Origin: Enterobacteria phage P2-EC30
Reading direction: 5' to 3' (one strand)
Sequence record: AJ512676.1
Length of the DNA: 2,187 nt
Shown: positions 31 through 1,975 of the stretch, one piece after another
Numbering within the stretch: the first letter of the stretch is position 1
How the letters are laid out: each line of letters begins with the position of its first letter
Notes under the pieces: model-generated
The model's input: only the letters and a program-made list of their open reading frames with translations
Database searches by the model: none
Told to the model about the DNA's origin: nothing
Translations under genes and position numbers: made by a program

Positions 31-92
31 GTTGTATGAGCTCTGGTGGGAGCTTACATATCTATGGCACAGAGTAAAGCCTAATTTGACAG

Positions 93-120
93 TCCGCTCT
101 GTGCCAGAGGCGGACGTTTT
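93..120 (+). terminator. Candidate weak rho-independent terminator or hairpin downstream of the tail fibre assembly gene
   Basis: TCCGCTCTG (93-101) can pair with CAGAGGCGGA (105-114) with one bulge and a 3-nt loop, followed by ACGTTTT (114-120). An alternative 9-bp stem GGCACAGAG (66-74) / CTCTGTGCC (97-105) with a 22-nt loop overlaps it. The T-tract is short, so this is weak. Confidence 0.3.
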
Positions 121-171
121 GGGTATATTAACCTTACACTTCATGGATACTATTCAACATCTCTTTTAAAT

Positions 172-226
172 TATTGTAAAATCCGACGCATTCATTGATT
201 TACGGAAACTTGGCGTATTGTAAAAT
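172..226. repeat. Two exact copies of the 11-mer TATTGTAAAAT (172-182 and 216-226), 44 bp apart start to start, in the AT-rich region upstream of the cargo gene
   Basis: Direct reading of the sequence; both copies are identical on the + strand. Each contains a -10-like TAAAAT hexamer. Function unknown: could be tandem promoter elements or regulator-binding sites. Confidence 0.6.
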
Positions 227-312
227 TGAACATCAAGATTTACACTATGAAGGTTAGGATAGTTTGTTAAAAGCATAATGCATGAGGCCTGAATCAGTTT
301 ATTAAAGAAGTT

Positions 313-343
313 TTGTATGAATTAAGTGGGCTAAAAATATAAT
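313..343 (+). promoter_or_regulatory. Candidate sigma70-type promoter for the cargo gene: -35 TTGTAT (313-318), -10 TATAAT (338-343)
   Basis: Perfect consensus -10 hexamer TATAAT at 338-343. The -35-like TTGTAT at 313-318 has a 19-bp spacer, longer than optimal. It lies about 70 bp upstream of the preferred start codon at 412. Sequence-only prediction in AT-rich DNA, where such matches arise easily. Confidence 0.35.
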
Positions 344-411
344 TTTGAAGTATTTATGACTACATGATTCATATTCAATTATTTGAGTTAAATATTTTTC
401 ATGGAGAAATT

Positions 412-1779
412 ATGGACGTTAGAATATTCTCATTAGAATCTCAGAAGAGTAAAATTTATGATAGAAGAACTAGAAAATATTTTGAAGAGGTTTATAAGAG
501 CTATGCTAATGGTTGTTACCGTTCTGCTACCGTGATGCTATGGTCAGTAGTTGTATGTGATATTATTTTTAAGCTCCAAGAACTGCGAGATGTTCATAAC
601 GATGCTGTTGCGGAAAAGATATTATTAGAAATTGAAGCACTACAAAACGATGATCCTTACTCTCCTAAATGGGAAAAAGAGCTTATTAAAAGAGTTTTTG
701 AAAGAACTCAATTATTAGACACTGCTTCAAACCATAAAGTTTTACTTATTCAAAAACACAGGCATTTATCTGCCCATCCAGTAATAAGTGACGAAGATAC
801 GTTATTCGAGCCAACACAGGAAATGATTAGAAGTGACATTAGGAATAGTATAGAAGTAATATTAAGCAAGCCGCCATTTATGTCTCAAAAAATACTTTCC
901 ACATTTGTTGCAGATCTAGAAAAGGTAAAGGACCTATTCCCTTCCGATAACGCGCTAAAAAAATACTTAGATGTTAAATATTTCAAATCTTTAAACAAGG
1001 AAGTATTAGTTAAGATATTCAAGGGGTTGTGGAAGTTTTCGTTTAGATCTGAAGAAGCTAAGCCATTAGAAAATAGAGAGATAAATATCAGAGCTATGAA
1101 ACTGATATTTGAAAAAGACAGGCAAGCCATGGTGGACTCGGTTAAAGCAGAAACTGCTTATTACTCCAATATTTCCAATAACCATGATGCAATTAAGGCA
1201 CTAATTGAGTTCATTTCCATGGAGAAAGAAATATATAACGCCTTGGATGATTCAGTAAAAGAACTCATAAAGCCTATTATAAAAGATAACATATCTTATT
1301 TTGGAATAGCCTTTTTTATATCTGAATCGCCGGAGGAACACATTAATCGCGTAACAAAAAGAATATCTGAAAAATATTACAAAAAATACGGGGATAATGG
1401 GAATTTTCTCAACCAGCAACATTTGGCAATTTTTAAAAATGTTTGCAGCGAATTAGGTTTGGAATCAGAGTATCGCGATTTTGGAATTGCTTGTTTTATA
1501 AACAGCGCTGATTTCGAACGAGCCGATATATATTTTGATAGATTTATTGACAAAGACTTGGCTAATTACTCAAGCGAGCAAATGTTAACCCTGCTTGAAG
1601 GAGCAAACAAAAACAATCAATGTTATTGGCGAAATCGCTCTAGAAACGGTAACGATTCAATAAGAATATTAAAAGCAGCAAAAAATAAACTTCCCGATGG
1701 TTTTGATTTTTCTAAGTATGATAATCTTCCTGTAGATAAGATAGATCATGTTTTAGAAGAGGATGTTGGAGAAAGATAA
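412..1779 (+). CDS. Hypothetical protein, about 455 aa; possible HEPN-family (R-x4-H) RNase-like N-terminal domain with a large uncharacterised C-terminal region; candidate phage-borne defence or abortive-infection cargo gene
   Basis: Uninterrupted ORF in the supplied track (364-1779). I prefer the in-frame ATG at 412 because GGAG at 403-406 sits 5 nt upstream, whereas the ATG at 364 has no Shine-Dalgarno at a usable distance. Tandem stops TAA TAG at 1777-1782. AT-rich codon usage throughout, unlike the flanking genes. RHLSAH (nt 760-777) fits the HEPN R-x4-6-H motif and sits about 120 residues from the N-terminus, where HEPN domains usually place it. No Walker A, no obvious transmembrane segment and no signal peptide seen. 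The domain assignment rests on motif and position only, with no profile search. Confidence 0.85.
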
Positions 1780-1815
1780 TAGTTAAAGTTAACTAACAAA
1801 ATATGATTCAAATTC

Positions 1816-1847
1816 AATCTAGGTATCATTAGCCAGATACCTAGATT
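1816..1847 (+). terminator. Perfect 12-bp inverted repeat AATCTAGGTATC-N8-GATACCTAGATT; candidate terminator for the cargo gene or a protein-binding palindrome
   Basis: Arms at 1816-1827 and 1836-1847 are exact reverse complements, with an 8-nt loop ATTAGCCA. Begins 37 nt after the cargo stop codon. Followed by the T-rich but interrupted stretch TAAACTTTAAATTTCTGTTTCTATT, so terminator function is plausible but not classic. Confidence 0.4.
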
Positions 1848-1975
1848 TAAACTTTAAATTTCTGTTTCTATTATATGTAGGCGTAACGAATAATCATCCT
1901 TAAGAAATACCTTCTAGTCTCAGAACATAATAAGACCGAGACTTCGCTTCTCGCTCAAAGCAGACTGTCAGATTT

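Follow-up and report, generated by a model that had tools for sequence, protein, structure and literature searches.

Background

PD-T7-3 was described in ECOR30 as a system consisting of a single CDS, an ORF of 1368 nt labelled 'HEPN' (Vassallo et al. 2022, Table S2, PMC9519451). Its similarity to HEPN proteins is remote, and in the same study the fun locus, i.e. the interval between genes G and FI, was presented as a second defence hotspot of P2 (Vassallo et al. 2022, PMC9519451). In cloning experiments, PD-T7-3 was protective on a low-copy plasmid when 444 bp of its own upstream sequence were included. The former PD-T7-3 is now called DARNA, a protein with a monomer of 55 kDa that comprises a HEPN domain (aa 1-159) and a C-terminal domain (aa 160-456) and resembles Csm6 in fold (Puteikiene et al. 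2026, bioRxiv 10.64898/2026.02.22.705581). The reference DARNA protects against T-even phages, T3, T5 and T7, acts by abortive infection and shows ssDNA-activated tRNA cleavage. The mechanism comes from this one preprint, which is not yet peer-reviewed and whose authors state that they did not capture the active conformation and that it is unclear what role the 'CT' preference plays (bioRxiv 10.64898/2026.02.22.705581).

Several other systems are comparable. The HEPN anticodon nucleases and defence RNases listed in the preprint, PrrC, ApeA, HepS, HepT, Csm6 and PD-T4-2, are triggered by a peptide, cyclic oligoadenylate or antitoxin loss, whereas the trigger of DARNA is SSB-presented ssDNA; DARNA is further set apart from them by its dodecamer, its Pds5-like C-terminal sensor and the absence of a Pfam HEPN match. 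A structural homologue of PD-T7-3, BxaP / ORF376, protects against T4 (Nat Commun 2024, PMC10799925), but it lies inside a type 3 BREX locus, not in a prophage hotspot, and is found by fold, not by sequence. P2 Fun(Z), which brings about a lysogenic-conversion-type exclusion of T5, is like DARNA a non-essential cargo in the G-FI locus and is flanked by the same inverted repeats. The summary in PMC8987985 has it that these Z/fun inverted repeats were proposed to mediate site-specific cargo exchange (Nilsson et al. 2004, Mol Biol Evol 21:1).

Here we describe a stretch of 2,187 nt from Enterobacteria phage P2-EC30 (AJ512676.1), hereafter the window, on which all features are located on the + strand unless otherwise stated. 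We conclude, with a probability of roughly 93%, that positions 412-1779 of the window encode DARNA, a protein that alone provides defence by abortive infection, and that a P2-like prophage carries its gene in the G-FI (Z/fun) locus as a non-essential cargo. What is said below on mechanism, phenotype, biochemistry and structures is taken from the literature, while the identity of the protein, its residues and their conservation, the type of the flanks and the variation at the locus were established in this analysis.

Organization and composition of the window

The window starts with the last 9 codons and the TAA stop of a P2 G-like tail fibre assembly gene (1-30, translation NPEWPEMPQ*), with the same DNA sequence as the end of G in P2, and it stops 10 codons into the FI tail sheath gene (2158-2187), where the translation MSDYHHGVQV is that of the P2 FI start. 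In the RefSeq sequence NZ_CP132979, which is 99.9% identical to the window, the CDS ending at 1-30 is labelled 'tail fiber assembly protein' and that at 2158-2187 'phage tail sheath protein'. Moreover, at three loci (L009, L012 and L014) the Pfam families Caudo_TAP and Phage_sheath_1 were found in the genes upstream and downstream of the cargo, respectively. A sequence-only reading of the window had taken the flanks to be gpG-like and FI-like, and the P2 alignment, the RefSeq annotation and the Pfam matches all bear this out.

As that reading had also noticed, the only long ORF between the flanks encodes a protein of 455 aa (53.3 kDa), from the ATG at 412 to the stop codon at 1777-1779. The ATG is preceded by a ribosome-binding site, GGAGA, at 403-407. 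An in-frame ATG further upstream, at 364, would yield 471 aa; since homologues from other genera are usually 455 aa in length, and since in the chain of the solved structure MDVRIF follows five additional residues and occupies residues 6-11, we regard the ATG at 412 as the start used. The GC content was 31.8% in the segment 120-1860, compared with 48.7% in 1-119 and 44.0% in 1861-2187, and the sharp drop below the flanks that had been claimed (to about 32% from 44-49%) is thus real. The island itself had been placed at 120-1860. Comparison with P2-like backbones showed that cargo-specific DNA is indeed present and extends from about 116 to about 1941, so the right edge at 1860 has to be moved outwards; the block in common with another type of prophage spans 92-1966.

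Identification of the cargo gene

Scans of the 455-aa protein against Pfam, NCBIfam and PHROGs gave nothing significant, the top match being DUF6559 with E = 0.023, below its cut-off. The defence-system profiles of PADLOC returned PD-T7-3 (PDLC04108) with E = 3e-168 and 558.5 bits, residues 5-440 of the protein being aligned with positions 3-429 of the 432 of the profile. The protein is also identical at 455/455 residues to PDB chain 9wxf_A, named 'Dandelion', and all of the 16 residues named in the preprint (F6, N33, K69, R98, R117, H122, K201, K204, E347, F368, D372, N402, Q403, Y405, W406 and N408) are present in it at exactly the published numbers. The ORF at 412-1779 is 1368 nt long, as is the PD-T7-3 ORF of ECOR30. 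By profile, ORF length and residue numbering, no difference between PD-T7-3 / DARNA and the window protein was detectable at the protein level, and from the equal length, the numbering and the PADLOC model we infer that it is the same protein as the ECOR30 allele RCP48690.1. The two have further in common that they are single genes carried as E. coli prophage cargo and that they encode an N-terminal HEPN domain followed by an alpha-helical C-terminal domain. Apart from this gene, no ORF in the cassette exceeds 81 aa.

The 12 chains of the 9wxf entry agree with the DARNA dodecamer, and two part-structures of 'Dandelion' are available, 9wx2 ('Dandelion-hepn') for aa 1-158 and 9wwz for aa 156-455. 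'Dandelion' appears to be the work of an independent group, under another name and with a construct 5 residues longer at the N-terminus; a literature search on the 'Dandelion' protein gave no relevant paper. The public records examined all call the window protein 'hypothetical'. Because this label persists although the protein has been named, its mechanism described and its structure solved, the annotation could be updated.

The sequence-only reading had proposed a defence cargo and had left open whether it was P2 fun(Z) itself or an undescribed system. The first proposal was right, for the gene is a described anti-phage system by both the full-length PADLOC match and the identity to 9wxf, and a cargo of such kind had been correctly flagged from composition and flanks. 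Neither of the two identities offered for it is true, as PD-T7-3 / DARNA has already been published and Fun(Z) is dissimilar. That the gene is fun(Z) or a diverged homologue, excluding T5 by the Fun mechanism, could be thought of because it occupies the same site between G and FI and because T5 is among the phages that DARNA protects against; however, Fun(Z) has 528 aa and is encoded on the opposite strand, and a protein identical to that of the window, unrelated to Fun(Z), has already been characterised. The best BLASTP match with P2 Fun(Z) (NP_046777) had E = 1.4 over 26 residues, which rules out identity with it, and we give this explanation practically no credence. The cargo gene is therefore not new, its phenotype, mechanism and structures having been published as those of PD-T7-3 / DARNA, and as a characterised defence gene in a recognised hotspot it offers little novelty in itself.

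Domains and conserved residues

With the limits given in the preprint, the N-terminal HEPN RNase domain (aa 1-159) is encoded at 412-888 and the alpha-helical domain of the C-terminal part, which senses ssDNA (aa 160-455) and lies within the stretch covered by 9wwz, at 889-1776. The motif R117x4H122, also taken from the preprint, corresponds to RHLSAH at aa 117-122 (nt 760-777), with the R117 codon at 760-762 and the H122 codon at 775-777. Within the HEPN domain, nt 652-666 encode the regulatory loop, aa 81-85 (DPYSP). For the curated HEPN profile, no significant Pfam or NCBIfam match was obtained with the window protein. Its membership of the HEPN superfamily rests on the Rx4-6H motif, which is present and invariant, and on the published structures.

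The ssDNA contacts reported for DARNA are F368, D372, N402, Q403, Y405, W406 and N408 (bioRxiv 10.64898/2026.02.22.705581). The window protein has all seven, the codons of the 'CT'-reading residues F368 to N408 lying at 1513-1635, and it also has every residue named for the dodecamer interface (F6, N33 and E347) and for RNA binding (K69, R98, K201 and K204). Full-length homologues, down to about 35% identity, occur in Vibrio, Pseudomonas, Shewanella, Myxococcus, Paenibacillus and Bacteroidia. In an alignment of 26 homologues with 34-78% identity, R117, H122 and Q403 were invariant and F368 and D372 were retained in 24 of the 26, while W406 and N408 varied across the family. The variation at W406 and N408 suggests that the preferred ssDNA sequence may differ among family members.

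Proposed mode of action

In the published mechanism, DARNA is proposed to form a dodecamer in which the N-terminal HEPN domains (R117x4H122) pair to give six RNase sites, and the loop of aa 81-85 would occlude these sites. The C-terminal domains would bind ssDNA of about 30 nt or more that carries several 'CT' dinucleotides. In the uninfected cell, ssDNA would be sequestered by the host SSB; upon infection, the phage SSB (T7 gp2.5, T4 gp32 or T5 SSB) would make ssDNA accessible to DARNA. The active DARNA would then cut the anticodon loop of most host tRNAs, so that translation would halt and the infected cell would yield no phage. Judged by its sequence, the window protein probably has the same anti-phage phenotype and the same tRNA cleavage activity.

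It has to be considered whether the phage SSB itself is what DARNA senses, as has been suggested for Hna, AbpAB and retron-Eco8, the activation by ssDNA in vitro being secondary. The escape mutants of T3, T5 and T7 all map to the SSB gene, and expression of a phage SSB alone halts the growth of DARNA cells, as direct sensing would predict. However, no stable DARNA-SSB complex was seen by mass photometry without ssDNA, tRNA cleavage was activated by ssDNA alone, and the DNA-binding-defective SSB mutant Y158C fails to trigger the system; the base-specific 'CT' contacts in cryo-EM and the loss of defence in the mutants F368A and W406A also argue against it. We consider direct sensing of SSB unlikely.

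Still less probable is that DARNA, instead of being a self-contained sensor-effector, is a HEPN toxin restrained by an antitoxin from the same cassette, which could be an RNA, as in AbiF, or a small protein. Toxin-antitoxin-like behaviour is common among HEPN defence proteins, and the cassette has an AT-rich non-coding stretch of 320 nt on the 5' side of the gene as well as small ORFs at 32-169 (+ strand) and 166-276 (- strand). On the other hand, purified DARNA shows no activity on its own, ssDNA being sufficient to activate it in vitro, the system was defined as a single CDS, upstream IS3 insertions are tolerated in several genomes, and the window contains no Rfam match at E <= 1.

Signals around the gene

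The region upstream of the cargo gene (116-411) is AT-rich and non-coding. A consensus scan found promoter-like hexamer pairs on the + strand at 154-182 and 199-226; the region also holds the GGAGA mentioned above. Such hexamers are not enriched, as there were 13 matches in the window against 9.0 +/- 3.2 in shuffled sequence. The copy in the prophage is probably expressed from a promoter inside the 320 nt of cassette DNA 5' of the ATG. Downstream of the gene, a terminator-like hairpin at 1816-1847, with a 12-bp stem and an 8-nt loop, is followed by a U-rich, interrupted tract; it folds at -16.3 kcal/mol (z = -5.79) and none of 200 shuffles was as stable. The claim that the gene has signals of its own consequently holds for the terminator and is weaker for the promoter, and of the features expected of a moron the deviant GC content and the terminator-like hairpin were seen, while the promoter-like matches did not exceed chance. 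That a native promoter works is known from the cloning experiments.

A second, strong hairpin of the intrinsic-terminator type was detected by the terminator scan at 2034-2054, upstream of the F promoter, and is followed by TTTTCTTT. It folds at -20.5 kcal/mol (z = -4.66) and belongs to the conserved P2 backbone, being kept in reference P2. The counterpart of the P2 late promoter pF was located at 2064-2134 by transferring the annotated positions of NC_001895 through alignment; its activator-binding site maps to 2064-2090 and its transcription start to 2132-2134, and the sequence of the activator site in the window is unlike that of P2. With regard to RNA families, Rfam gave no match at E <= 1 anywhere in the window and none in four hairpin-bearing loci, and thus nothing in favour of an RNA antitoxin or of a known RNA element.

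Variability of the G-FI locus

The flanks of the window match about 1,626 E. coli genomes, in which the enclosed interval is about 1.0-2.2 kb in length and differs in gene content. In other E. coli genomes the contents include Shedu, an HNH endonuclease, an acetyltransferase accompanied by an HTH protein, and hypothetical proteins of various kinds; in phage records, SMEK and HAD/NUDIX genes are among them. This comparison, together with Vassallo et al. 2022, confirms the earlier statement that the G-FI interval is a variable region and a defence hotspot; the 2026 paper on P2-like diversity and the 2011 Nilsson paper make no mention of a G-FI hotspot. DARNA occupied the site in only 2 of the approximately 1,626 flank-matching E. 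coli genomes.

The ORF is situated among the late tail genes and reads in the same direction as G and FI, as would be expected if it were a conserved structural or assembly gene of the phage lineage and not cargo. That is scarcely believable in view of the two genomes just mentioned, of the identical gene present in unrelated Rac-like prophages, of its GC content of 32% compared with about 45-49% in the flanks, and of the other genes that reference P2 and P2-like phages have at the site. The rarity of the gene at the site and the Rac-like copies rule out a conserved structural or assembly gene, the finding that would have spoken against cargo from the outset.

Hairpins bounding the cassette

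The cassette carrying DARNA is bounded by hairpins on both sides. On the left, a boundary module (64-115) ends in a hairpin, designated type A, at 92-115, which consists of an 8-nt arm GTCCGCTC, an 8-nt loop TGTGCCAG and an 8-nt arm AGGCGGAC. The RNA fold of the left boundary has -15.3 kcal/mol. The module is kept beside different cargos in P2-like and Rac-like prophages, and its motif was found in 90 IMG/VR contigs. On the right, a hairpin of type B at 1942-1965, CTTCGCTTC TCGCTCA AAGCAGAC, has the arms of A and a different loop, and is likewise kept beside other cargos; in the window its left arm is one base shorter than in other DARNA cassettes. The B hairpin forms an inverted repeat with 83-112, in which 24 of 30 positions are complementary, a number that none of 300 shuffles reached. 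In the P2-EC67 record AJ512685, the left stretch is annotated as 'left inverted repeat' and the B site as 'right inverted repeat'.

The pair of 24-nt hairpins is also found around other cargo, for the most part defence-like genes, in several prophage backbones, namely P2-like, Rac-like and at least 3 others. The 8-nt arms are identical (GTCCGCTy / rAGCrGAC), whereas the 8-nt spacers differ (TGTGCCAG in A and yTCGCTCA in B). All B hairpins (70/70) had the same orientation as A, and the order from A to B was strict. In the viral-contig set, DARNA and FRG-domain cargos each occurred in both P2-like and Rac-like backbones; in a spread sampling of E. coli genomes, neither DUF5677 nor Shedu cargos were in both hotspots. 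Variants in the arm sequence place the crossovers, as far as can be read from the sequences, inside the hairpins.

The repeats to which the 2004 proposal refers are those described here and coincide with 83-115 and 1942-1974 of the window. Our findings on the hairpins appear to extend that proposal of exchange, in that the 8-8-8 layout, the two types of loop, the A-to-B order and orientation, the occurrence in at least five backbones and the arm variants were seen here. A tentative explanation, to which we would give rather less than even odds, is that A and B are two heterospecific core sites of a putative site-specific recombinase and that defence genes, DARNA among them, move by a natural cassette exchange between backbones that are unrelated. 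A would then recombine with A and B with B, as in the engineered loxP/lox2272 exchange; the B-to-A junctions of 39-42 nt would represent the joints between neighbouring cassettes in small arrays, and the site-specific recombination postulated in 2004 for the fun locus would be one instance of this more general exchange. Plain homologous recombination at the short shared hairpin sequence explains the same data. The hairpins are not known to resemble the consensus sequences of integron attC, Xer dif or Hin/Gin/Cin invertase sites; a literature search with the hairpin sequence returned only an irrelevant fish-genetics paper. If the hairpin-bounded cassette really represents a recombination system, this would account for the turnover of defence genes at prophage hotspots, and the 24-nt hairpin motifs could help to find new cargo.

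The cargo gene and its surroundings

One long open reading frame was found in the window, on the + strand at 412-1779 (stop codon at 1777-1779), and it encodes 455 aa, in agreement with the single gene of about that length proposed in the sequence-only reading. The ATG at 412 is preceded by the ribosome-binding site GGAGA (403-407, + strand). An alternative in-frame ATG at 364, used in a few database records, gives a protein of 471 aa. Because the homologues from other genera are mostly 455 aa long, and because MDVRIF forms residues 6-11 of the chain in the solved structure (PDB), with five extra residues ahead, we assigned the start to the ATG at 412.

The first 30 bases of the window translate on the + strand to NPEWPEMPQ* and are identical to the end of the P2 tail fibre assembly gene G, and the last 30 bases translate on the same strand to MSDYHHGVQV, the start of P2 tail sheath protein FI, which confirms the flanking genes as first assigned. 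The chromosome of E. coli ARS-C101 matches the whole window at 99.9%; its RefSeq order is 'tail fiber assembly protein', 'hypothetical protein' and 'phage tail sheath protein', and these genes belong to a complete run of P2-like late genes in the order V, W, J, I, H, G, cargo, FI, FII, E, T, U, D, ogr.

The GC content of 120-1860 is 31.8%, against 48.7% and 44.0% in the flanks, so that the sharp drop described earlier is real; the island is correctly described by these bounds except at its right edge, since cargo-specific DNA extends beyond 1860 to about 1941. As for the signals of its own ascribed to the gene, RNA folding gave a terminator-like hairpin at 1816-1847, but promoter-like hexamers 5' of it do not exceed the number expected by chance. 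Two features lie in the conserved right flank: a strong terminator-like hairpin at 2034-2054 and a region corresponding to the P2 late promoter pF, with the activator site at 2064-2090 and the transcription start at 2132-2134.

Identification of the cargo gene as PD-T7-3 (DARNA)

The 455-aa protein gave a full-length PADLOC match to PD-T7-3 (E = 3e-168), which bears out the suspicion of a defence cargo, and no significant match in Pfam, PHROGs or NCBIfam. PD-T7-3, which originates from strain ECOR30, is one of 21 systems obtained by functional selection of E. coli fosmid libraries and is a single CDS annotated 'HEPN' with an ORF of 1368 nt (Vassallo et al. 2022, PMC9519451), the same length as window 412-1779. 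The Sasnauskas and Laub laboratories renamed it DARNA, for ssDNA-activated RNase, in a preprint of February 2026 (bioRxiv 10.64898/2026.02.22.705581), where it is divided into a HEPN domain (aa 1-159) with the catalytic motif R117x4H122 and a C-terminal domain (aa 160-456). The preprint describes mutants of F6, N33, R98, H122, K201, K204, E347, F368 and W406 and additional contacts of K69, D372, N402, Q403, Y405 and N408; all 16 residues that it names (16/16) stand at exactly the stated positions in the window protein.

A PDB sequence search retrieved entry 9wxf, named 'Dandelion', which has 12 chains and is identical to the window protein at 455/455 positions; the HEPN domain and the C-terminal one have entries of their own (9wx2 and 9wwz, respectively). 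'Dandelion' is a third name for the protein, and its depositors are apparently not the DARNA authors, whose codes are 9tra-9tre. A literature search for the name 'Dandelion' found no paper using it, and a naming conflict may lie ahead.

We concluded that the cargo gene is PD-T7-3/DARNA, an already known system, and thus neither of the two options left in the sequence-only reading, fun(Z) or an undescribed system. P2 Fun(Z), with 528 aa and encoded on the opposite strand, has no similarity to the window protein and was rejected.

The mechanism of DARNA has been described in the same preprint (10.64898/2026.02.22.705581). Escape mutations were located in the phage SSB gene, and DARNA cells stopped growing when T7, T5 or T4 SSB alone was expressed; in infected DARNA cells most host tRNAs were cleaved in the anticodon loop. 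In vitro, DARNA was inactive both by itself and in the presence of SSB; ssDNA at least about 30 nt long and containing several 'CT' motifs activated it, an effect enhanced by phage SSB and suppressed by E. coli SSB. Cryo-EM revealed a dodecamer of D2 symmetry, whose six HEPN sites face outward and are blocked by a loop of aa 81-85, and C-terminal 'claws' in which C and T bases are read via D372, N408, F368 and Q403; according to the authors, these structures do not capture the active conformation. The phenotype and mechanism of the window copy would be those of the reference DARNA, from whose literature they are carried over on the strength of sequence identity.

The exact protein sequence is present on 339 contigs. 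Every source name seen for it and its homologues is 'hypothetical protein', despite the phenotype published in 2022, the mechanism preprint and the structures, and no Pfam or NCBIfam model covers it. Full-length homologues, with identities between about 35% and 80%, come from Photobacterium, Providencia, Aeromonas, Shewanella, Vibrio and Pseudomonas aeruginosa and, outside Gammaproteobacteria, from Myxococcus, Paenibacillus, Bacteroidia and Patescibacteria. When 26 of these were aligned, R117, H122 and Q403 showed no variation, F368 and D372 were retained in 24, and 7 had G in place of W406; N402 and N408 are variable (aa 402-408 correspond to window 1615-1635). Since W406, N402 and N408 vary, distant homologues may not share the preference for ssDNA with 'CT' and then a stacked base.

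Genomic contexts of the DARNA cassette

The flanks were matched in 1,626 of 5,426 complete E. coli genomes, in only 2 of which DARNA lies between G and FI. In other E. coli genomes the interval between these flanks, about 1.0-2.2 kb long, carries Shedu, HNH endonucleases, an acetyltransferase together with an HTH protein, or assorted hypothetical proteins, and phage records include SMEK and HAD/NUDIX genes. This differing content agrees with the proposal of a variable defence hotspot, and the fun locus had been reported as a second defence-enriched site of P2-like phages, with three of the systems of Vassallo et al. (PMC9519451). Because that work had already described the locus, both the DARNA gene and its hotspot are prior knowledge, and the residual interest is in the boundary hairpins. 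In a subset of P2-like prophages (genome matches H81-H94 and H204-H212; E. coli O157:H7 and others), the usual right flank is replaced by a 'recombinase family protein' gene immediately upstream of FI, and similarity to the window begins only at 2067.

Rac-like lambdoid prophages also carry an identical DARNA gene (WP_001703208.1), with a DUF977 gene on one side and a TehB-like gene on the other. The block there matches window 92-1966 at 98.5-99.7% identity (fetched loci L002, 6001-7876; L006-L008, L010, L011, L013 and L015). Since 7 of the 10 contexts shown are of this kind, the Rac-like site may be the commoner home of DARNA; it is itself variable, with FRG-domain, DUF5677 and other genes. 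Several Rac-like copies have an IS3-family element in the presumed promoter region, about 90 nt upstream of the start codon of DARNA (4679-5907 in both L013 and L015; matches H3, H6, H7 and H11).

Boundary hairpins of the cassette

At each end of the shared block lies a 24-nt hairpin, and the two have the same 8-nt arms and different 8-nt loops. Hairpin A (92-115) reads GTCCGCTC TGTGCCAG AGGCGGAC (arm, loop, arm), and hairpin B (1942-1965) has the loop yTCGCTCA where A has TGTGCCAG. A repeat search showed that A and B form an inverted repeat with 24/30 positions complementary, and none of 300 shuffles was as good; the P2-EC67 record (AJ512685) labels them left and right inverted repeats. In the window, the left arm of B (1942-1950) has lost one base, CTTCGCTTC vs TTCCGCTTC in other DARNA cassettes (L006, L009), which makes the stem weaker and may be a sign that the site is decaying.

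The A motif was found in 90 IMG/VR contigs, after DUF977 in 40, after G in 14 and in other contexts in 36. All fetched loci together (including L002, L016, L017, L018 and L019-L108) contain 103 A and 70 B hairpins, and every B (70/70) is on the same strand as its A. In 64 loci the order is A ... B, at a distance of 421-4039 nt. Where B stands ahead of A the gap is 39-42 nt (L081, 12603-12668; L083, 920-982; L106, 2305-2370), which suggests that these joints are junctions of consecutive cassettes in small arrays.

The A ... B pair encloses other cargos in at least five prophage backbones, and 21 distinct backbone-cargo combinations with both hairpins were obtained. More than one backbone was seen for four cargo types; P2-like and Rac-like prophages both contain DARNA, and both contain an FRG-domain gene (PADLOC candidate PDC-S15). 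The outer arms, facing the backbone (left arm of A, right arm of B), read ...CTC and GCAGAC in P2-like and ...CTT and GCGGAC in Rac-like prophages, whereas the inner parts (right arm of A, left part of B) track the cargo, with GAGGCGGAC for DARNA and AAAGCAGAC plus a TCACTCA loop for the FRG gene. Since the outer arms follow the backbone and the inner parts the cargo, these variants place the crossovers within both hairpins, near 100-106 in A and near 1954-1961 in B.

One possible reading, to which we give a probability of roughly 0.3, is that A and B are heterospecific recombination sites of a putative recombinase. Homologous recombination at a short sequence in common would leave a pattern no different from that of a dedicated recombinase. 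The idea of recombination sites is not new, because Nilsson et al. (2004) proposed it for repeats at the fun locus, as related in a passage of a 2022 review (PMC8987985). If confirmed, heterospecific sites would provide a mechanism of modest importance for the turnover of defence genes.

Other cargo between the hairpins

Other cargos lie between A and B in L033, L039, L079, L096, L100 and other loci. Six of 10 of their proteins have PADLOC matches, to PDC-S51, S33, S15 and S39 and to the retron reverse transcriptases RT-Toprim I-C and RT III-A. The remaining four (249-346 aa) gave no PADLOC match and are candidate defence genes. Among the smaller cargos, some resemble, by eye, a HAD phosphatase and a glyoxalase-like protein.
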